Part shown: positions 6,444-62,541 of the stretch, one piece after another
Layout: each line of letters begins with the position of its first letter
Numbering within the stretch: position 1 is the stretch's first letter
Notes under the pieces: model-generated
Told to the model about the DNA's origin: nothing
The model's input: the letters and a program-made list of their open reading frames with translations, nothing else
The model's database searches: none
Made by a program: the position numbers and the translations under genes
UHGV virus genome: UHGV-1440165
Reading direction: 5' to 3' (one strand)
Length of the DNA: 64,000 bases
Source of the DNA: a virus

Positions 6444-6476
6444 AAAAAGCCGGAGCGTTTGCCCCGGCTTTCTCTT
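6444..6476 (-). terminator. Putative intrinsic terminator downstream of the HU-like gene
   Basis: GC hairpin (AGCCGG...CCGGCT) followed on the minus strand by a T-run. Confidence 0.45.
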
Positions 6477-11466: not shown

Positions 11467-11490
11467 GATATAGTCTCTTGGTTTCAAATG

Positions 11491-11512
11491 GGCGGGGTAT
11501 GATTACCCCGCC
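11491..11512 (-). other. GC-rich hairpin (GGCGGGGTA-loop-TACCCCGCC) of a recurring intergenic element
   Basis: Perfect 9-bp stem; followed on the minus strand by CATTTGAAACC and the RBS/start of the 11466 gene. Confidence 0.5.
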
Positions 11513-11518
11513 GTGGGT

Positions 11519-12025
11519 TTATAGGGTAACAAGTGATACGGTAAAAACCATCGTCCCGTCAGTTGCCATTTTTCTTGAAACTGGTATGACGCGAGGCTGG
11601 CAGAATATCCATTCTTTCTCCATGGACGCCAAGTCCAGCATATCCATTTCTGATTCATCGCCTTTGTTCACAAATTTTTCTAGAGAACCATAGACATTAA
11701 GCCCCTCCGGGAGTCCGTTTCGATGTTTGTAACATATGCGGGCGACAGCTCTGGTTCCATACGATTTAGAAAATTGTTTGGCCACATGCTTCAGTTCACT
11801 GAAGCTAAGACAAGAATCCCATGTCTGAAACATGTCTCCTCGTTCAAACATCATCTCCAAACGCGCAACGTCCTCTTTAGGCAACCCGCGATAAAGTGTG
11901 GTCATCTGCGGTTCGCGTAATTCTCGCACCAGACCACGGATGGCAGGGGAAACAGTGCCAGGGCGCATGATGTGGGACTTATCATGGACGAGGTAAAATA
12001 AATCTTGAATTTGTTGATCGGTCAT
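11519..12025 (-). CDS. Hypothetical protein; possible ADP-ribosyltransferase-like
   Basis: 168 aa; ATG with GAAGGA RBS; candidate R / S-x-S / E-x-E triad (LYRG, DSCLSFS, EKE) is suggestive only. Confidence 0.35.
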   Translation of the reverse strand: MTDQQIQDLFYLVHDKSHIMRPGTVSPAIRGLVRELREPQMTTLYRGLPKEDVARLEMMFERGDMFQTWDSCLSFSELKHVAKQFSKSYGTRAVARICYKHRNGLPEGLNVYGSLEKFVNKGDESEMDMLDLASMEKEWIFCQPRVIPVSRKMATDGTMVFTVSLVTL

Positions 12026-12084
12026 GATGTATTTCCTTCATTTCAAATAGGCGGGGTAATCATACCCCACCCTAAGTTATAGAA

Positions 12085-12324
12085 TTAACTGATGTGCTTC
12101 AGAAGAGCGAAGAGGATCGCGGCCTTGGCTTTCACCTTTCCGACGACGCCTGTTTCGACATCGACTTCTTCGGCAACCCAATCTTTTCCCTTCTTGCTGA
12201 TGATAACATCGCGGCGCTGGGCATATACTTCTTTGGTCGCATACACACGGCGGAACCCTTTAGCGCGGAGCAAGCCCCAATTGCGATCAATCTCTACTGA
12301 AGTTTCGACCATTTTGTTCTTCAT
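12085..12324 (-). CDS. Hypothetical small basic protein
   Basis: 79 aa, ATG start, downstream of an early-type promoter. Confidence 0.4.
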   Translation of the reverse strand: MKNKMVETSVEIDRNWGLLRAKGFRRVYATKEVYAQRRDVIISKKGKDWVAEEVDVETGVVGKVKAKAAILFALLKHIS

Positions 12325-12375
12325 GATATAATCTTACCTTTCAACCTGGTGAACCCATCGTTCGCCAGTTATTGA

Positions 12376-12405
12376 ATAATAGGACATTCTTTAGAGGAAG
12401 TAAAC
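12376..12405 (-). promoter_or_regulatory. Sigma70-type early promoter (-35 GTTTAC, 18-nt spacer, -10 TATTAT)
   Basis: Minus-strand GTTTAC-N18-TATTAT immediately after a terminator hairpin; resembles the T4 early-promoter -35 consensus. Confidence 0.5.
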
Positions 12406-12415
12406 CCCTAAAAGT

Positions 12416-12440
12416 AAAAATCCCCAACAAACGTTGGGGA
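12416..12440 (-). terminator. Intrinsic terminator (TCCCCAAC-loop-GTTGGGGA + T-run)
   Basis: 8-bp GC stem followed on the minus strand by TTTTTA; lies downstream of the 12458..12682 gene. Confidence 0.6.
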
Positions 12441-12457
12441 TTTAATAAAAGTTATGC

Positions 12458-12682
12458 CTATTTAATTTCTCGGCTTGAATTTTCCAGTTCTAATTTTCTT
12501 ATAGCGGAAATTCTACCTTCATCAGTTGCGGGAAACTCCCAAACAGCACGACGTCCGTTGTGAGTATCACAACTTGCCAGCCAGAAGAAATTAGAGGGAT
12601 CTTTAAACAAGACCAATTTAGGGTTAGCAATATTGTTCAGGCAAAATGGGGCGAGGTCAACAACGCGTGATACAGCAGACAT
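12458..12682 (-). CDS. Hypothetical small protein
   Basis: 74 aa ORF, ATG start. Confidence 0.4.
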   Translation of the reverse strand: MSAVSRVVDLAPFCLNNIANPKLVLFKDPSNFFWLASCDTHNGRRAVWEFPATDEGRISAIRKLELENSSREIK

Positions 12683-12731
12683 AATATATACCTTCTTTCA
12701 ACGGACGGGAACGCCCCGCCCTATGAATTCA

Positions 12732-12761
12732 ATAATACGTATTTGCCTTATAGAAGTAAAC
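12732..12761 (-). promoter_or_regulatory. Sigma70-type early promoter (second copy of the GTTTAC-N18-TATTAT cassette)
   Basis: Near-identical copy of the 12376..12405 promoter. Confidence 0.5.
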
Positions 12762-12771
12762 CCCTAAAAGT

Positions 12772-12796
12772 AAAAATCCCCAACGTTTGTTGGGGA
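12772..12796 (-). terminator. Intrinsic terminator (second copy, loop inverted)
   Basis: Same TCCCCAAC/GTTGGGGA stem as at 12416..12440 with the loop sequence reverse-complemented; T-run on the minus strand; downstream of the ACP-like gene. Confidence 0.6.
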
Positions 12797-12802
12797 CTTC
12801 TG

Positions 12803-13126
12803 TTATTTGCGCAGGGCAACCACGAATTCAGCGAGTTCACCCATGGTCGGGTCATCGCCTTTACTGCCCAGCCAGCCGTCGTCTATTTCGACCTGAAACT
12901 CTTCTTCTAGTTCCATTACGATTTCGATAGCATCCAGTTCATCGCCGCCGAGGTCTTTCTTGGTGCGGAGGCCAGCCAGTTTGTCCAGGGCGTCTTCGTT
13001 TTGAGATGCCACGTCGTCCAGCAGTTTGCGCTTGTCATCGTCGCGCCACAGATCCATATTCAGATTCTCTGTAGCGTACTGAGCCAGGTGTCGCATCACC
13101 TCAACATATGTCGGTTTACTGCTCAT
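12803..13126 (-). CDS. Acyl carrier protein-like protein lacking the phosphopantetheine-attachment serine
   Basis: 107 aa; DLGGDELDAIEIVMELEEEFQVEIDD closely matches the ACP helix-II region [20 protein letters not shown], but the DSL serine codon is GAA (Glu); ATG with GGAGA RBS. Confidence 0.6.
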   Translation of the reverse strand: MSSKPTYVEVMRHLAQYATENLNMDLWRDDDKRKLLDDVASQNEDALDKLAGLRTKKDLGGDELDAIEIVMELEEEFQVEIDDGWLGSKGDDPTMGELAEFVVALRK

Positions 13127-13144: not shown

Positions 13145-13162
13145 GGGCGGGTTGCCCCGCCC
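13145..13162 (-). other. GC-rich hairpin (GGGCGGG-loop-CCCGCCC) between vWA and ACP-like genes
   Basis: 7-bp perfect stem immediately after the vWA stop; terminator-like but weak T-run. Confidence 0.4.
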
Positions 13163-13168
13163 GTTGGA

Positions 13169-15370
13169 TTAGATTTTGATCTCTTTCTCTGCCAGTTCGG
13201 CAGTGACCTTGTACTTCACGCCATCCACTTCAACTTCCATGGTTGACTCTTCCAGGTCGAGGTCGGTGAACCAGCCATGGCCAGCAACGATACCATACAC
13301 CACTTTAGACAGCGTCTTGTTCAGGGCGCGGACTTCAGTGATGGCCGCCTTGGCAGCAGCGTCGATCCAGTTTTCGATCAGCTGTTTCTGTACGGCTTCA
13401 GGCACAGCAGTAATAGCCGGGGACTTCACGAATGCGTCGTATTCTTTCAGTGCATTGGCGATGAACATATCACCCGCATTGAGAGCCTTTTTATCAGCAA
13501 TCTTCTTCTGTACCGCAGCGATGGACGGCAGAGAAGACGCCCCGGCGATCTTAACGTTCAGCTCACGGCTCATGTAGACGTCCGTGGAGTCCTTCAGCTC
13601 GGTCTTCGGTGAGAAGCCATAATCGCGGATACCAACACTAGACAGGTATTCTGCGGCCGCAGCGCCGTACTGAATAGCCAGACCTTTGGCATTACCCTTA
13701 CCAACCAGGGCGTCGCGATAGAACTTCAGTACCTTCTGCTTGCCTTTCAGGGCTTCCAGGCGAACGTTGTCGGCAAAGAACTGTGCAGCACTGATGTTCT
13801 TGACCATCGCACGGTTGACCAGCGGTACGCTTTCCAGGTTCAGAATGAACACTTCCGGACCAACGAACACGTGGACGCCCATTTCGATCAACTTCTGCAC
13901 AACTTCGATATCAGCCTTGAACGGCAGGGTCTTCACATTGATGATGCCGTCTTTGACGATGGTGTAGTTGCGCCACTGGAATGTGTCCAATTCTTCGGGT
14001 AGACCGAACTTCTTCTGAGCGAATTCGGGCACCGCCACAGTTCCATGCTGGATTGTACGCACACTGATGTTCGGGCGCTCAGAGTTATAGACCAGGTCGC
14101 TGATTGAGATCACGCCCAGATCGTTAGCAGGTTCAAACGACGGTGTCCACTCTTCGTGCTCAGCCAGCTTGAGAGCGAGGGCTTTACGCTCTTCTTTGGA
14201 CTTGGCGTTCGCGATTTCTTCCGCCAGCTTGTCTTCGGTATCATCGGCTTTCTGCACAGTACCGCGACCAATGCTCTTGTAGGAGAACATCGGGTGCTTG
14301 GTGGCAACAGACACGCCAGCTTCGGCCAGGTACGTCAGCACATCAACGACAGTGGTCGCATCTTCAGCCGGAACCATATTGTAGTCGATACCGTCCACGC
14401 CGCGCAGCTGATCATCAACGATGGCCTGGGTCAGATCAACTTTGATGTTGGAGTAGTCCTGCTTGGTGAAGCAGTTGCTGTACTGTTTGATGAAGCGGAC
14501 GTCGCCCGTTTTCTTCAGCGCAGCCCACACCAGGTCGGCGTCCATGATGTGTACGCCGTAGAACGCCAGCACGTATGCTGCCTGGATGTCCGTCAGCGCA
14601 TCAAGCTGGTCGATCATGTTAGGGTTGACGACCCACAGCTTCGTGACGCTCTCAGGGATGCTCACGTGGCCGATAGGATGGTCTTCATCCGGCTGTACCG
14701 CCAGCACGGTTGCTACGCCGTTTTCAACGTAGATGGCGTGAGTGTACACCACAGGAACGTCAACACGAACCTTCGGCACCGAGGACTTCAACACGTTTTC
14801 CAGCTCAGTCTGATATTCAGTCTGTCCTTCGGCGAACACGTGAGTCGCGCCGGAACGCTCGGACATCTGGGCCAGGAGTTCGCGGTTACAGTACCAGCCG
14901 TATTCGATAAAGGTGATGTTATCGAAAACAAATGGCAAGGTTTCGGCGACGGCCAGGATTTCATTGGAGCGCCAGCAGTTGTCATAACCATCGGTCATGA
15001 ACGCCAGGTTGTTGACGTAGCCGGGTTTCTTCAGGCTACGCGCAGTATCTACCGCGAGACCCAGGGGTTCGACGAAGCCAGTGCAACCGGATGGTTGCAG
15101 GAAGCGGTCGATCAGTTTGTTCAGCTCGCTCAGGTCAGACGCAGCACTGACCTGGCGGCCAGCGAACACAGTACCAAAGTCGCCACGGGATGAGAAGTAC
15201 AGGAGGCTCACTGTGTCTTCCGGTTTCACCAGGGAAGGCAGGTTCTCCTTCAGGTGCTTACGGACTTCAGGGAGCGCCCGGTACATGGAACCGGAAATGT
15301 CCACAACGATTACATGGTTGGACGGGGCAGCAGTCGCAACCGCATTCTTAAACTCCAGGGATTCAATCAT
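13169..15370 (-). CDS. von Willebrand factor A (vWA) domain protein
   Basis: MIDAS-type motif VVDISGSM near the N-terminus and later TDGYDN; about 733 aa from ATG at 15370 (MIESLEF...). Track start 15433 overlaps a small upstream ORF. Confidence 0.65.
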   Translation of the reverse strand: MIESLEFKNAVATAAPSNHVIVVDISGSMYRALPEVRKHLKENLPSLVKPEDTVSLLYFSSRGDFGTVFAGRQVSAASDLSELNKLIDRFLQPSGCTGFVEPLGLAVDTARSLKKPGYVNNLAFMTDGYDNCWRSNEILAVAETLPFVFDNITFIEYGWYCNRELLAQMSERSGATHVFAEGQTEYQTELENVLKSSVPKVRVDVPVVYTHAIYVENGVATVLAVQPDEDHPIGHVSIPESVTKLWVVNPNMIDQLDALTDIQAAYVLAFYGVHIMDADLVWAALKKTGDVRFIKQYSNCFTKQDYSNIKVDLTQAIVDDQLRGVDGIDYNMVPAEDATTVVDVLTYLAEAGVSVATKHPMFSYKSIGRGTVQKADDTEDKLAEEIANAKSKEERKALALKLAEHEEWTPSFEPANDLGVISISDLVYNSERPNISVRTIQHGTVAVPEFAQKKFGLPEELDTFQWRNYTIVKDGIINVKTLPFKADIEVVQKLIEMGVHVFVGPEVFILNLESVPLVNRAMVKNISAAQFFADNVRLEALKGKQKVLKFYRDALVGKGNAKGLAIQYGAAAAEYLSSVGIRDYGFSPKTELKDSTDVYMSRELNVKIAGASSLPSIAAVQKKIADKKALNAGDMFIANALKEYDAFVKSPAITAVPEAVQKQLIENWIDAAAKAAITEVRALNKTLSKVVYGIVAGHGWFTDLDLEESTMEVEVDGVKYKVTAELAEKEIKI

Positions 15371-15533
15371 CGTTATTGCCTTCTTCAGGGTTGTCATCGG
15401 CCTCACCTTCCGGATTGACCAGCATGTGTTCAACGAATTCGCGATTCAGCTCAATCTGGCTCATCAGCGCATCCGTCGGAGTAAAGCGGCGGTCGAGGTT
15501 ATCGACACCCGCACGTTTAAATGGTTTGGACAT
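15363..15533 (-). CDS. Small hypothetical ORF (56 aa) between NAMPT-like and vWA genes
   Basis: ATG at 15533 with GAGG RBS; its TGA stop overlaps the vWA start (ATGATTGA); acidic C-terminus. Not in ORF track (under 60 aa). Confidence 0.4.
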   Translation of the reverse strand: MSKPFKRAGVDNLDRRFTPTDALMSQIELNREFVEHMLVNPEGEADDNPEEGNNDD

Positions 15534-26357: not shown

Positions 26358-26388
26358 TTCAGCCTCTTGTAGAAGAATCATTTCAAAT

Positions 26389-26407
26389 GGGCGGGAAAGC
26401 CCCGCCC
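26389..26407 (-). other. GC-rich hairpin (GGGCGGG-AAAG-CCCGCCC) of the recurring element
   Basis: Perfect 7-bp stem followed on the minus strand by ATTTGAAATG; a TATAAT hexamer lies just upstream. Confidence 0.45.
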
Positions 26408-26436
26408 ACACATTATAGCATCAGGCTGGAGATTGA

Positions 26437-43634: not shown

Positions 43635-45530
43635 TTAAGATGCTGCGACGATACCGCCGCCAGTTTCGATCTCGGAGAACTCCATGTCCGGTCGAACGGA
43701 AGCAAAGTCAAGATACACCCAATTTATGCTGTACTCTGGCTTCAACCAGATACCCGCAACCATCTGGTTGGCAGCGATGACGTCGGCGGTGTTGTTGTCA
43801 GCATCACACTTGACTTTACCGTCATAGATCGCACCCATGTTCGCCAGCTGGCGGATGTATGGGCGTACAGCGTTGCTGAACAGGCTGCGAGTGAACTCAT
43901 CGTTGTTCTCACCAAGGTAGTATTTGGCGATGGCAGCGATGTTCTGCTCGGCCATGATGAACAGGCCACGAACGTTGATGCGGTCAAACGCAGATGGACG
44001 AGTCAGGCCAGTCTTGTCGCCGTACAGCACGATGCCTTCGTTGGAGAAGGTAACGATGCTGTTGACCTGATTGCGATAGAGTACAGCACGCTCATCAGAA
44101 GACGCAGACCAGGCCATGCGATTGTAGTTGTTGTATTTGCCACGGTTGTGGAACGCTGGAGACTTGTAGATACCAGCCAGCTCAATGCTGCGTGCCCAAA
44201 CACCTGCCGTACCACCACACGCCGGGATCCAGCGCATCTTGTCGTTGTACTTGTCGTACACATACGCCCAGTTGTCGTCCATGAAGAAGTAGGAGGAGTC
44301 GCGCACCAGGCTTTCGCGCCAGGCAACAACATCATCCATCTCACGCCCACGGTTGCCAACGACATTGTCACGCAGTGGAGATACGAAAGACACGGTGTCT
44401 TTACGCTCGGTAGACAGATCAATCAGCGCCTGTTGCTCGATGAGTTCTTCACAGAAACCGAACACTGGCTTGGCGTCATACGCTTCAGCGTTGTTCAGCG
44501 CCTGGATAGCCGCCACGCGGTTCCCAGTGTAATCGTCCACACCACCTTCGAGTTCAGTAACACCAGCGGCCAGGGTGGTGGCGAAGGTGTACACCCAATT
44601 GGAGGTGTCGTTGATCACATCTTTGAAGTACGCGTTGGAGCCATCGGATTTCTTAGAACCCTGAGTGGTCTGCATCAGTTCATACTTCTCGATGATCGTA
44701 CCGGAAGCGCCGACAGTGGTGATGACAGCGGTAGCAGTCAGACCATTGGCGTCTGGAACAATCGCAGTCACAGCCTGAGGACCGATGGCTTTATGGGTAA
44801 CGATGACGGTGTTGGACTTCACAACAACAGAAGAATACACGTCAGTCAGAGCCGTCAGCGCAGTGCCGATCTTGGTCGCCAGAGTCGCCGGAGTATCAGT
44901 GTCGGTGTACGCCACGTCTTCACCAGCAACAGAGATGGAGCCAGCAGCTGTTGCAGTACCGGAAACAGAGATACGGTCAACCTGACCAACAGCACCAGAA
45001 GAGTCGGTGATGCGACCCACTTTGTCAACGATGACGATGTGGTATTCACCCGGCTGTGGAGCATATGCGAAGTTGTTGCGGAATTCCCAAGTCGGGAACA
45101 GCGCAGCATCACAGATGTTCACAGCGATATCGTTACCCAGGGTGCCAGCATAGCGGCCAGTCCAGGTAATAGACGCAGACGGGGTTGCCGCTTCGAAGTC
45201 CAGCTTGTTGCGGATCAGGATGGCGGTCTGGCCTTTGGTGACGGAGTTACGCGCCGCCGGACCAACCACACGAGTTACCCAAGCCACAGAGCTGTAGGAC
45301 AGGAAGTCAGCAACAACCAGAAAGTCGGTTGCAGTTGCGTCGTTCGGTTTGAAGAATTTCTTCACAAGGCCAGTTTCACCACCAGTAACAAGCACTGGGA
45401 GTTCAGCTTCACCCCATTGGAATTTACCAACGGCTGCACCCTGTACAACAACGGATGGAGACGTCTGAAGCGTGGCATCACGCTCCGTCCACTGTACGGA
45501 CGGCGCGACGCTGAAGCTTTGAGTTGCCAT
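43635..45530 (-). CDS. Tail sheath protein (gp18-like)
   Basis: About 631 aa from ATG at 45530 (MATQSF...) with GAAGGA RBS; immediately downstream of the large terminase gene as in T4. Confidence 0.7.
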   Translation of the reverse strand: MATQSFSVAPSVQWTERDATLQTSPSVVVQGAAVGKFQWGEAELPVLVTGGETGLVKKFFKPNDATATDFLVVADFLSYSSVAWVTRVVGPAARNSVTKGQTAILIRNKLDFEAATPSASITWTGRYAGTLGNDIAVNICDAALFPTWEFRNNFAYAPQPGEYHIVIVDKVGRITDSSGAVGQVDRISVSGTATAAGSISVAGEDVAYTDTDTPATLATKIGTALTALTDVYSSVVVKSNTVIVTHKAIGPQAVTAIVPDANGLTATAVITTVGASGTIIEKYELMQTTQGSKKSDGSNAYFKDVINDTSNWVYTFATTLAAGVTELEGGVDDYTGNRVAAIQALNNAEAYDAKPVFGFCEELIEQQALIDLSTERKDTVSFVSPLRDNVVGNRGREMDDVVAWRESLVRDSSYFFMDDNWAYVYDKYNDKMRWIPACGGTAGVWARSIELAGIYKSPAFHNRGKYNNYNRMAWSASSDERAVLYRNQVNSIVTFSNEGIVLYGDKTGLTRPSAFDRINVRGLFIMAEQNIAAIAKYYLGENNDEFTRSLFSNAVRPYIRQLANMGAIYDGKVKCDADNNTADVIAANQMVAGIWLKPEYSINWVYLDFASVRPDMEFSEIETGGGIVAAS

Positions 45531-59549: not shown

Positions 59550-62504
59550 TCAAATTATGCAATAACTAATAACCCCAATTGCTGTAGATGCGGCATCATT
59601 TGCATTCATTGCAATCATCACATTAAGTCCAGAACCTACGTTCTCTCGGCTCAGTATTACTTCACCTTCTCGCCCAAAATCGCTTTTTATAACAACAGGC
59701 GAGGATGGGTTATTTACATTGTTGATGGTTATTGAAGCGCTTACTTGTGTGTTTCCTGATGCAGCATTTGTCGGTACGGACACAATGTTATATTTAATGT
59801 AACATTGATGTCCATATGGAACGTTGAAAAAACCAACGTTCTTAGAGACATCACCAGTAACAGCTGTGTTTAATGTAACCTTCCCATCTTCTTTGAAGCC
59901 ATTGTAACCTTTCCAATCTGATTCAATCATACTGAAAGGAACTGGTCCGAGTTTTCCATCAGTACCAGAGTAACAGTTACTGCTAGAGAAGATGAACTGG
60001 CGTGAGTCAAATTCAGCAGGTCCAGTAGGTGCCTGGATATATAGAACCTTATTTTTAGTTTGAGCGAATCCATTACCAGTAATTAACAGTGGGAATGGGA
60101 AACCTCCACTTAGTGCTGTTGTTGATTTCTGCACCCAGATATCATATCCATTGAACAGGAAGCAGTTACCAATAATGGTCTTAGAGCCTTCTGAGGCCGG
60201 ATTGCCCACAGATGCCGGGATAGTGAAGTTAACCCCAATAGGGTTATTTTCAATCTGTGAACCACTCATATAGAAACTGGTATTCCACCCCGCAACAATA
60301 CCCACTGTTGTGTTTTCTGAAATGGTGCAGCCAATAATCGACTGAGAGCCAGCAAAGGAAAACTCGCTGAGTGATAAGCCACGACCGTTAAGAACGAACT
60401 CACACCCAAAGAAACGGTTTTGGTCAGAACCACCTTCGGCAGAGCCATCTACCTTATCGATGTTACAGCCCGTGGAGCACCACAGGGCGTGCACGTTATA
60501 GAAGTTGTTGAGGTAAACAACACCCGCTAACTTAATACCAAAATCAAAATAACGGATATGAAGACCACTGAAGTTGTTCTCACGAACATGGAAAACTCCG
60601 GCATTCACCGTTTCGTCAACAGATACCCCACAGTACCCATTAACGTTAAGATCTGGCCCCTCTAACATCAAATCCTGTATTTTTACACCAGTTATCCCAT
60701 AATCGAATCGATATCCATCTAGCACAGGCACCAGTTTAAAAATGTCATTATGACCCACTGCCTTAAAGCATGGCATCTGTTTACGAGCTACGGTGGATCC
60801 GCCGTCACCAACAATTTTGATTGGCTTGTTGATGGTGATCGCAGATGAAATCTTATACATAGACTTTGGTGTAGGCACGATGAGCGTACCACCCCACGGG
60901 GTAGCATCAACAGCAGCCTGGGTTGCTGCCGTATCATCAGTACTACCATCACCAGTGGCAAACCAACCAAGGTTAACAGCACCAACTGTTTGGCGTTTCC
61001 AACGTAAACCTGTAGTGTCTACTAAGATGGTCCCCCCATTATCAGCAGAAGTCGCATCAGTGGGGTCGGATTCAAAGATACCAAATCCGCCATCGTATTT
61101 ATTAACCTTTCCTAGACTGTAAACTCGACCATTAACTGGATTTGTATTGGCACGAACATCTGCATAATTGGCAGCACCAATCAAACCAAACCCCAATTTT
61201 CCTGCCAGATTTTTTCTCAACTCGGTTGCCGAGTCGGCAACATCCAAAAGAGTGACTGTCGTGTTCGTACTGCCAACGACATATGTCAGCTGATTACCAG
61301 AGACACTCACAATAGATGCCGTGGTTGGGATGCCCGCTGGGAGTCCCCAAGATTTCTGCGCGACCACGTCATAGATGACGGTCTTACCATTCAGCTTGGT
61401 GATCGTATCAGAACTGAGGATCACCTGAGAGACAGGCACGTTAGCTGCCCGAGCAACTTCATTTGGGGTACGGTCAATCTGGTTGTACAGGGTCGGATCA
61501 CCGTTGATGACAACAACCACTTCATCACCCGCATCCAGCTCATCCGCAAGTGTGATCAGCTTCGTCGTGGAATTATACTGGAACCCAAGATTCTTTTGCT
61601 GGCGTGTGCCGTTGATAAAGATCTCAGACACTTCTTCTGCGTCGACGTCCAGTGTAATTGTTGTCTCGCCGCCTACCGCCGAGCCAGAGTTGTACACCCA
61701 AGTGATGACAGTACCGCCGCCGGAACCACTACCGCCTGCTCCGAGTTGGATAGGGACATACTGGATGATCTGCAATTCTGAACCAGAGGTCAGAGCTGGG
61801 CTGAAATTAACATTGTAGCCATCCAGGGAATACTTGGAATCCAGCAGGCGCTTGCCATCGACGTAGACATCAACGATAGATGGCTGGGTCGCCAGCGTCA
61901 CCTGAGTCGTGTCGGTGGCCAGGGTTGTGGTGAAGATTGTACGGCTGTACACGCGCCCTTGCCCCAGACCAACTCCAGCAGTGACGATCCAACCACGAGC
62001 ATCACCAGACCAGGTGAAAGTGGCAGACACGCTATCCGTGGATAATGTCATCGGTTCAGTAGAACCATAGATGGCATAACCGTTCGGATCGATGGTGAGA
62101 GGATAGACGGAGAATTTACCGTACAGGTCGCATACAGTAACAGAGTCGCCAACGCGCGTAGGATCCGGAAACACCACCGTAGAGACGCCGGAAGAGTTAT
62201 CCACCAGATAGCCCCGCCCTTCAGCCAAAGTTGCCGTAGAGGCATGAGGAAGCACTTCCCAGCGGATACCTCCACCACCCAGAGGTAGCCAACCCCCGTT
62301 CTCGTAATAACCTTCGAATTCGTCGGACGCAGAATTGTATCGAACAGCGGAAGGAAGACCATCCACAGCATCACCTTCAGGGACGGTCATCACCGCATCC
62401 GGTCCATGTTCGATGATACCAGTGTTGAGGACACCAGCCAGTTTAGATTGCTCAGCAGTTTCAAGCCCGAGAGGGAAAATCGGCTGTGTTGGTTTGTTAG
62501 CCAT
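59550..62504 (-). CDS. Tailspike protein with pectate-lyase-type beta-helix (second, distinct)
   Basis: 984 aa; VNLGWFATGDGSTDDTAATQAAVDA motif mid-protein; long N-terminal region preceding the beta-helix. Confidence 0.7.
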   Translation of the reverse strand: MANKPTQPIFPLGLETAEQSKLAGVLNTGIIEHGPDAVMTVPEGDAVDGLPSAVRYNSASDEFEGYYENGGWLPLGGGGIRWEVLPHASTATLAEGRGYLVDNSSGVSTVVFPDPTRVGDSVTVCDLYGKFSVYPLTIDPNGYAIYGSTEPMTLSTDSVSATFTWSGDARGWIVTAGVGLGQGRVYSRTIFTTTLATDTTQVTLATQPSIVDVYVDGKRLLDSKYSLDGYNVNFSPALTSGSELQIIQYVPIQLGAGGSGSGGGTVITWVYNSGSAVGGETTITLDVDAEEVSEIFINGTRQQKNLGFQYNSTTKLITLADELDAGDEVVVVINGDPTLYNQIDRTPNEVARAANVPVSQVILSSDTITKLNGKTVIYDVVAQKSWGLPAGIPTTASIVSVSGNQLTYVVGSTNTTVTLLDVADSATELRKNLAGKLGFGLIGAANYADVRANTNPVNGRVYSLGKVNKYDGGFGIFESDPTDATSADNGGTILVDTTGLRWKRQTVGAVNLGWFATGDGSTDDTAATQAAVDATPWGGTLIVPTPKSMYKISSAITINKPIKIVGDGGSTVARKQMPCFKAVGHNDIFKLVPVLDGYRFDYGITGVKIQDLMLEGPDLNVNGYCGVSVDETVNAGVFHVRENNFSGLHIRYFDFGIKLAGVVYLNNFYNVHALWCSTGCNIDKVDGSAEGGSDQNRFFGCEFVLNGRGLSLSEFSFAGSQSIIGCTISENTTVGIVAGWNTSFYMSGSQIENNPIGVNFTIPASVGNPASEGSKTIIGNCFLFNGYDIWVQKSTTALSGGFPFPLLITGNGFAQTKNKVLYIQAPTGPAEFDSRQFIFSSSNCYSGTDGKLGPVPFSMIESDWKGYNGFKEDGKVTLNTAVTGDVSKNVGFFNVPYGHQCYIKYNIVSVPTNAASGNTQVSASITINNVNNPSSPVVIKSDFGREGEVILSRENVGSGLNVMIAMNANDAASTAIGVISYCII

Positions 62505-62541
62505 TTCAAATACCCCTAAATGTGTTCATGTCATCTAGGGG

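Follow-up and report, generated by a model that had tools for sequence, protein, structure and literature searches.

We analysed a stretch of 64,000 nucleotides (nt) of the virus genome UHGV-1440165 (hereafter the 64-kb window, to which all coordinates refer), in which a short element combining a predicted terminator and a predicted promoter, termed here cassette H1, occurs in two copies around the gene for a protein of 74 amino acids (aa). Megablast of the region matched 244 Ackermannviridae records, from phages of hosts including Salmonella, Escherichia, Shigella, Dickeya and Klebsiella, and gave 95.5% identity between this region and Salmonella phage pSal-SNUABM-02 (Agtrevirus); judged by sequence similarity, the source of the window is an Agtrevirus-like phage of the Ackermannviridae, i.e., a ViI-like, T4-related myovirus. 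Our comparisons suggest that the two copies of H1 act as stop-then-start signals of transcription and as recombination joints for the loss of the gene between them, and that the loops of such hairpins have been inverted recurrently in this family. All features of the locus lie on the minus strand, and are given here in the direction of reading.

13169-15433, minus strand: gene for a vWA-domain protein, 754 aa (from the list of open reading frames)
12803-13126, minus strand: gene for an acyl carrier protein (ACP)-like protein, 107 aa (acyl carrier protein by PHROGs and Pfam)
12772-12801, minus strand: predicted terminator hairpin of copy A, core TCCCCAAC-AAAC-GTTGGGGA at 12777-12796
12785-12788, minus strand: copy A loop AAAC, the commoner orientation among relatives
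12761-12776, minus strand: copy A T5-ACTTTTAGGGG block, the U-tract of the predicted terminator and a putative UP-like AT-rich region
12732-12760, minus strand: predicted sigma-70-type early promoter of copy A (TTTACT 12755-12760, 17-nt type A spacer, TATTAT 12732-12737)
12703-12721, minus strand: hairpin GGGCGGGGCGTTCCCGTCC in the 5′ untranslated region, just upstream of the ribosome-binding site (RBS) of the 74-aa gene (-16.9 kcal/mol, z -2.6)
12458-12682, minus strand: optional 74-aa gene (PHROG 22629, function unknown)
12418-12443, minus strand: predicted terminator hairpin of copy B, core TCCCCAAC-GTTT-GTTGGGGA at 12421-12440
12429-12432, minus strand: copy B loop GTTT, flipped relative to copy A
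12405-12420, minus strand: copy B T5-ACTTTTAGGGG block, identical to that of copy A
12376-12404, minus strand: predicted early promoter of copy B (TTTACT 12399-12404, 17-nt type B spacer, TATTAT 12376-12381)
12085-12324, minus strand: 79-aa gene (PHROG 804, function unknown), conserved across the family

The duplication was described by the initial annotation as two copies of about 75 bp, and both the repeat finder and the sequence itself confirm it. Indeed, a 47-nt direct repeat (12397-12443 and 12753-12799, period 356 bp) is identical at 42 of 47 positions, with four of the five mismatches forming the loop; when extended to about 75 nt, the copies share 56 positions; one block of matches spans the hairpin up to and including the -35 box, the other is the -10 box, and the spacer between them has diverged. 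Each copy reads TCCCCAAC-NNNN-GTTGGGGA, then TTTTTACTTTTAGGGG, TTTACT, 17 nt and TATTAT. The promoter-like motif had earlier been written as GTTTAC-N18-TATTAT; the motif is there, and its box and spacing are better read as TTTACT-N17-TATTAT. As for the loop, the reverse-complement relation between the copies stands, and it concerns the tetramer AAAC/GTTT: the pentamers first proposed (GTTTG versus AAACG) are not reverse complements of each other and both include the first base of the 3′ stem. The window contains the hairpin pattern exactly two times (0.28 expected), and likewise the 24-nt segment covering the T-run and the -35 box (0.00 expected, 100 shuffles). A look for further copies had also been suggested; a search of the 64-kb window for the hairpin and for the T-run/-35 block, with up to 3 mismatches, yielded the known pair and none besides, so H1 is not a dispersed family in the window.

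Promoter and terminator activity of H1 are predictions, and several in silico lines agree on them. The RNA of the copy B hairpin folds at -16.3 kcal/mol (z -4.7) and that of copy A at -18.5 kcal/mol (z -6.2), and no shuffle among 200 folds as well as either of them. The stem of 8 bp contains 5 G-C pairs, is closed by a tetraloop and is followed by UUUUUACUUUU (U5), as for an intrinsic terminator (GC-rich stem of 5-14 bp, loop of 3-8 nt, U-tract directly 3′ of it); it is extendable to 13 pairs in copy A via the flanking AGAAG/UUUUU and to 11 pairs in copy B via AAA/UUU. In a consensus scan, TTTACT-17-TATTAT at both copies displayed 9 of 12 matches to the sigma-70 consensus with optimal spacing, and in a custom scan the H1 pair was the only case in the window of terminator-like hairpins with a sigma-70-like promoter after them at a distance of up to 90 nt. 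In addition, the single orthologous cassette of Dickeya phage LIMEstone1 was annotated independently in the GenBank record of that phage (HE600015), as a 'putative factor-independent terminator' and a 'putative early promoter' with -35 and -10 boxes, and this ortholog is among only five early promoters predicted in that phage (PMC3296691). Early promoters of T4 are of the strong UP/-35/TGn/-10 type, and an ADP-ribosylase belongs to the early gene class in T4 (PMC2988021). An early transcription unit would therefore fit the locus, since an ADP-ribosylase-like gene sits downstream. From the position of the T block and from this T4 early-promoter architecture, we infer that the T-rich terminator tail may also occupy the UP position, at about -41 to -56. 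The proposal that each gene has its own promoter and terminator holds strictly, as a prediction, only for the 74-aa gene; the hairpin 3′ of the 79-aa gene is of a different type with a weak U-tract.

The 74-aa gene is present in some genomes only, and the arrangement of H1 varies with it. Relatives cover a 3-kb region in classes of 100%, 91%, 83% and 74%, and gene gain or loss was therefore suspected. We compared junctions and arrangements in a table of 21 genomes and aligned five genomes. In this alignment, fGh-Ecl02 and A221 lack exactly one 356-bp period, and their single cassette has its left flank from copy A, its spacer and right flank being those of copy B. Two copies together with the 74-aa gene were found in the window, pSal02, SW16-7, ZQ1, LHE287, CAU_YEP3, pertopsoe, SJ3 and Det7; the majority of the 21 genomes have a single copy with the copy B spacer. 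Marshall also has a single cassette, in which the copy A spacer is fused at the -10 box to sequence downstream of copy B; as read from the sequences, this junction is a second crossover class, for at least two crossover points overall. In LHE287 and SJ3, the downstream copy bears the spacer of the upstream copy, and the two copies are near-identical over about 75 nt except for the loop, which indicates gene conversion between copies. Altogether, the junction table contains three spacer types and the region is mosaic.

On a larger scale, the H1 cassette was found in about 220 records, about 28 of them with two copies, and at no more than 2-3 places per complete relative genome; the cassette that precedes the 79-aa gene is found throughout Kuttervirus, Agtrevirus and Limestonevirus. 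Of the phage records, 32 contain the 74-aa gene, in each case a single time and with the ACP and 79-aa genes on either side, and most relatives lack it. In its most distant carrier, Klebsiella phage Magnus (Taipeivirus), the 74-aa homolog lies directly before the 79-aa homolog with a gap of 5 nt, as a tight operon behind a promoter-like sequence, with neither a second cassette nor a TCCCCAAC hairpin. The hairpin at 12703-12721, which is outside the repeat and part of the gene module, is conserved upstream of the Magnus homolog. Because Taipeivirus has the gene and lacks a second cassette, the data suggest that the 74-aa gene is ancestral in the family. The indel would then be a loss, gain by the reverse reaction being less likely, and on this sequence comparison the two H1 copies are the probable recombination joints for the loss of the 74-aa gene, a consequence on which the initial annotation did not touch. 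We also considered that mismatched loops might shield the gene from deletion, and rejected it: matched and mismatched loop pairs are both common in two-copy genomes, and to the right of the loop the copies remain homologous over an unbroken 32 nt. Note that the GenBank records SenALZ1, selz (several), SeTs-2 and SenASZ3 start 14-400 nt from the H1 cassette; these assemblies were probably broken or opened at the H1 repeat.

A second cassette, H2, surrounds another optional gene further downstream:

12041-12071, minus strand: H2 upstream copy, GGTGGGGTA-TGAT-TACCCCGCC then TATTTGAAA, between the 79-aa and 168-aa genes
11519-12025, minus strand: optional 168-aa gene, resembling an RNA polymerase ADP-ribosylase (phrog_832, E 1e-14)
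11482-11512, minus strand: H2 downstream copy, GGCGGGGTA-ATCA-TACCCCGCC then CATTTGAAA
11089-11487, minus strand: 132-aa open reading frame (PHROG family of unknown function)

Its general form is GG[C/T]GGGGTA-loop-TACCCCGCC followed by [C/T]ATTTGAAA, both copies fold at about -18.5 kcal/mol (-18.8 for the upstream copy), and the LIMEstone1 record annotates H2 as a putative terminator. As for H1, the loops of the two copies (TGAT vs ATCA) are reverse complements, which is why the repeat finder reported the pair as an inverted repeat (I2). The 168-aa gene is missing in A221, LHE287, CAU_YEP3, pertopsoe and Marshall, each of which has one hybrid H2; genes after H2 differ between phages. More generally, what follows the cassettes varies from relative to relative; it can be the 168-aa gene, denV, the 132-aa gene or another insert. 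The TGAT allele was found in 228 records and is that of pSal-SNUABM-02 and fGh-Ecl02 at the H2 downstream position, while ATCA is rare (about 4 records, including ZQ1, which is like the window). As a side observation, a 7.9-kb record named 'Enterococcus phage Efm 3-10' (OR844945.1) carries the H2 hairpin in the ATCA form with 93% identity; it is probably mislabelled or a contaminant contig.

The initial annotation had noted that a local inversion within a palindrome would produce the loop difference, and our results support such an inversion, rather than point substitution, in many relatives: loops of 4, 5 and 7 nt are exact reverse complements in otherwise identical contexts. For H1, alleles were counted by stringent short-query BLAST against GenBank phage records, giving 76 records (85 places) for the AAAC form and 45 records for the GTTT form. 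All four combinations of upstream and downstream loops are present in two-copy genomes, namely AAAC/AAAC (ZQ1, SW16-7, pSal02), AAAC/GTTT (the window, LHE287), GTTT/AAAC (CAU_YEP3, pertopsoe) and GTTT/GTTT (Det7); the copy B loop of the window is thus flipped not only relative to copy A, but also relative to the corresponding copy in pSal-SNUABM-02, SW16-7 and ZQ1. A 5-nt version of the H1 loop exists in both orientations in a shared context (GGTTT at five loci, AAACC in a STML-13-1-like locus). Neighbour-joining of the 21 genomes required at least 4 changes of orientation on the 320 nt of the ACP side and at least 5 on the 260 nt of the 79-aa side, and in these local trees flipped alleles adjoin near-identical unflipped sisters. 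With both alleles present in the family, the flip may have arisen elsewhere than in the genome of the window.

A third, unrelated hairpin behaves in the same way:

6449-6468 (equivalent position in the window): hairpin 3, bidirectional and terminator-like, between the HU-like and helicase genes (annotated as a terminator in LIMEstone1)

Its 7-nt loop reads TACAATG in 26 GenBank records and CATTGTA in 21. As an example, a comparison of Ds16CZ with Ds5CZ, both Dickeya phages, shows 22 differences in the 6,042 nt around this hairpin (99.6% identity over 6 kb), and 5 of these 22 differences are the flipped loop, with just one other single-nucleotide polymorphism (SNP) within about 330 nt of it. 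The window itself has a further variant of this loop, CAAACG. When loop inversion is defined as in PMC8794818, i.e., an exact reverse complement with length and stem halves unchanged, it is found at H1 (4 and 5 nt), H2 (4 nt) and hairpin 3 (7 nt). A flip scan of all 43 perfect hairpins of the window against the fetched relatives found multi-base flips at H1 and H2 only; a hairpin at 44386-44402 (CGG vs CCG) was discarded as a single-base change. Pattern scans of IMG/VR and metagenomes returned 4, 13, 6 and 1 loci, 9/13 stem matches in them came from unrelated contigs and were disregarded, and the GenBank phage records were far more informative. Taken together, these sequence comparisons argue for a genuine loop flip that has recurred and is not confined to H1. 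It is probably neutral, since it leaves the stem and the U-tract as they are and neither loop is of a special tetraloop class.

Several other explanations could be proposed for the loops. The difference in the window might not be new at all, old alleles having been combined by recombination or short-tract gene conversion with another phage; both alleles are indeed spread across genera, the region is visibly mosaic (three spacer types, converted spacers in LHE287 and SJ3), and the copy B SNPs 'ctaaAgaat' and 'caccAgg' of the window are common to GTTT-bearing (maane) and AAAC-bearing (LIMEstone1) relatives. We consider this quite possible, if not the favoured account of the difference. However, the alleles must first have been created by an inversion, at least 4-5 changes are required by the local trees, the 5-nt loop is known in either orientation and the Ds16CZ/Ds5CZ flip is clean; this explanation is compatible with recurrent loop inversion and concerns only the place of the event. 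Independent substitutions that happen to resemble a reverse complement could be proposed because loops are unconstrained and may evolve fast. Such an origin is negligible in our estimation: all four loop positions are changed to the exact reverse complement in a repeat otherwise identical at 42 of 43 positions (a chance of about 1.6e-7 per site at 6% divergence, by rough estimate), the same exactness recurs for the 5-nt H1, 4-nt H2 and 7-nt hairpin 3 loops, and no intermediate loop sequences occur among the 21 genomes. Sequencing or assembly artefacts hardly deserve more credit; palindromes can confuse assemblers and several GenBank records begin at the H1 repeat, but stems of 8-13 bp are far shorter than assembly k-mers or reads, each allele was found in dozens of independent assemblies from different laboratories, and the asymmetric flanks make the strand unambiguous.

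That the flip is recurrent and both states are common might also be expected of a programmed functional switch, in which loop orientation would control phase variation or termination and read-through, possibly through an invertase. This is very improbable. No gene for an invertase is found in the neighbourhood, the flip leaves both stem and U-tract as they are, the predicted differences in stability stem from the flanks and not from the loop, neither AAAC nor GUUU is a special tetraloop class, and unrelated hairpins flip too, which points to a general mutational process. To our knowledge, a segment of 4 nt is also far too small for the known invertase systems. Finally, the cassette and its gene could form an actively mobile module (a mini-circle as in the promoter-early stem-loop (PeSL) cassettes, a miniature inverted-repeat transposable element or a homing cassette) able to enter new sites, the 74-aa gene being gained. 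The gene is AT-rich, flanked by direct repeats and patchy across genera, and PeSL mini-circles are documented in T4-like phages (PMC2839356); however, no genome has the gene at more than one place, and that place is invariably the one between the ACP and 79-aa genes, a genome contains no more than 2-3 copies of the cassette, Taipeivirus has the gene without a second cassette, and no transposase or homing endonuclease is adjacent, so we regard mobility as unlikely.

We therefore favour an explanation in which stop-then-start cassettes, repeat-mediated gene loss and recurrent loop inversion are combined, and give it as a whole a probability of about 0.72. According to it, an intrinsic terminator (the 8-bp GC-rich stem, extendable to 11-13 bp) would end transcription from the vWA and ACP genes, and a host sigma-70-type early promoter would restart it right afterwards. 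In a minority of genomes, the second copy of the cassette would give the 74-aa gene its own promoter (copy A) and terminator (copy B), the copy B promoter driving the 79-aa gene. The cassette would have been duplicated in the Kuttervirus/Agtrevirus/Limestonevirus lineage and the 74-aa gene then deleted repeatedly; 356 bp could be lost through homologous recombination between these direct repeats, or through replication slippage, with one chimeric cassette left behind. The loop would have been inverted within its own palindrome, most likely by a short template switch during replication, the nascent strand taking the complementary arm as its template for the loop.

A number of points weigh against this explanation. 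For transcription, a literature search found no transcript-end, transcriptome or reporter data for Ackermannviridae; the -35 box of the H1 promoters has only 4 of 6 matches and is not accompanied by a TGn element, and promoter-like hits are frequent in the region (9 found vs 4.2 expected). The consensus scan lists copy B and not copy A as terminator-like on the minus strand; copy A is left out by that tool because its stem absorbs the T-run, and its hairpin was recovered as terminator-like by the custom scan. In the Det7 group, the downstream copy carries a stem mismatch (TCCACAAC) and the upstream U-tract is degraded (GGGGACTTCTAC; the T-run is now CTTCTAC), a change by which the stem grows to 13 perfect pairs and the terminator tail is lost; termination at the Det7-group sites may therefore be dispensable. 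For the history of the gene, the direction of loss or gain rests on one outgroup genus. For the loops, the minimum number of flips presumes zero recombination within about 100 nt of the loop, and one ancient flip per hairpin followed by very short conversion tracts could in principle explain the mosaic; template switching, as the putative mechanism, is indistinguishable here from other routes of inversion.

Regarding the gene row, the 74-, 79-, 168- and 132-aa proteins gave zero Pfam matches, and Rfam and tRNA scans found neither Rfam families nor tRNAs in 11.0-13.4 kb. The GC content of the 74-aa gene is 41.8%, compared to 50-54% in its neighbours and 50.3% in the window, and that of the 168-aa gene is also low (46%). 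Note that a GC-rich hairpin stands just 5′ of the RBS at almost every small gene here, often followed by ATTTGAAA (e.g., 12703-12721, 12346-12368, 13145-13162, 26388-26408 and about 62470-62510). Several of these pre-RBS hairpins are annotated as terminators in LIMEstone1, yet a proper U-tract is missing from them; possible roles are in attenuation, RNA stability or processing.

These results extend the idea of PeSL cassettes beyond T4-like phages, as punctuation of expression and as recombination joints by which accessory genes are gained and lost, and they explain variation of gene content in a phage family with wide use in biocontrol and therapy (against Salmonella, E. coli O157, Shigella, Dickeya and Klebsiella). 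Flips create 4-7 apparent SNPs from single events and can mislead SNP typing and phylogeny of near-identical phages; conversely, they offer natural neutral markers for template switching at hairpins. Our current understanding of transcription or recombination is unchanged by these results. A stronger proposal, which we consider doubtful, is that the loops of intergenic terminator hairpins in Ackermannviridae are hypermutable flip-flop sites, inverting far faster than point substitution and possibly mixed within one lysate. If this were true, the T4-like machinery of replication and recombination would extrude hairpins or switch templates unusually often, loop orientation would become a countable reporter of the template-switch rate, and systematic homoplasy would be expected, together with interrupted homology between the direct repeats through which accessory genes are deleted.

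Compared with known systems, the terminator and promoter calls are already known from the annotation of LIMEstone1 (Adriaenssens et al. 2012, PMC3296691). Unlike the window, this phage has a single H1 copy and no 74-aa gene; its annotation was also made in silico, and is silent on duplication, recombination and loop orientation. Inversion of hairpin loops by template switching has been described in rRNA and miRNA genes, typically or mainly for 4-nt loops (Monttinen & Loytynoja 2022, PMC8794818), and hairpin-associated 'flip-flop' micro-inversions in spacers of chloroplast DNA (Kim & Lee 2005, as cited in PMC12928735). These cases and H1 are alike in the exact reverse complement of the loop, the untouched stem, the recurrence and the confounding of phylogeny, while the phage stems considered here (8-13 bp) are shorter than the chloroplast stems of 11-24 bp quoted in PMC12928735. 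Our literature search found no report of loop inversion in phage or bacterial intrinsic terminators.

A moron, in the concept of Hendrix and Juhala, is a gene that brings its own promoter and terminator and stands inserted between two genes which are neighbours in related phages; the definition comes from temperate lambdoid phages, and morons are generally regarded as gains. The 74-aa gene resembles them in lying between genes adjacent in most relatives, in its predicted promoter and terminator and in its deviant base composition. In contrast to a moron, it belongs to a virulent phage, it is apparently ancestral and being lost, and its promoter and terminator appear duplicated from the signals of the neighbour instead of imported. 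Its low GC content (41.8%) favours a foreign origin, whereas the Taipeivirus arrangement and the single locus favour ancestral presence with repeated loss. The gene fits the description of a moron, and gain by insertion is probably not its history.

The closest relatives of H1 in organization are the PeSL cassettes of T4-like phages (Arbiol et al. 2010, PMC2839356; Comeau et al. 2014, PMC4122927). Both consist of a stem-loop terminator and a sigma-70-like early promoter (predicted, for H1) with an AT-rich stretch upstream of the -35 box, both are intergenic and stand before small ORFans in a region of variable gene content, and in both an ORFan between two cassettes in one phage corresponds to a single chimeric cassette in a close relative, with varied crossovers; among PeSLs, recombination between cassettes deletes or shuffles genes. 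They differ in that PeSLs have about 50 dispersed copies per genome, concentrated in several hyperplastic regions, while H1 has two copies at one locus, in their hosts among phages (T4-like Straboviridae vs Ackermannviridae), in that mini-circles and promoter and terminator activity of PeSLs were shown by experiment while H1 is known here from its sequence, and in the loop flipping, which is absent from the description of PeSLs. Our literature search found no report of PeSL-type cassettes outside T4-like phages, Ackermannviridae included. Four PeSL features are found at H1 and the fifth, a dispersed multi-copy family, is not, and the H1 cassette is, by this comparison, best described as PeSL-like rather than as a PeSL. 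Altogether, three known phenomena, namely transcription punctuation, repeat-mediated loss of an accessory gene and loop inversion, are combined here in a new family setting.

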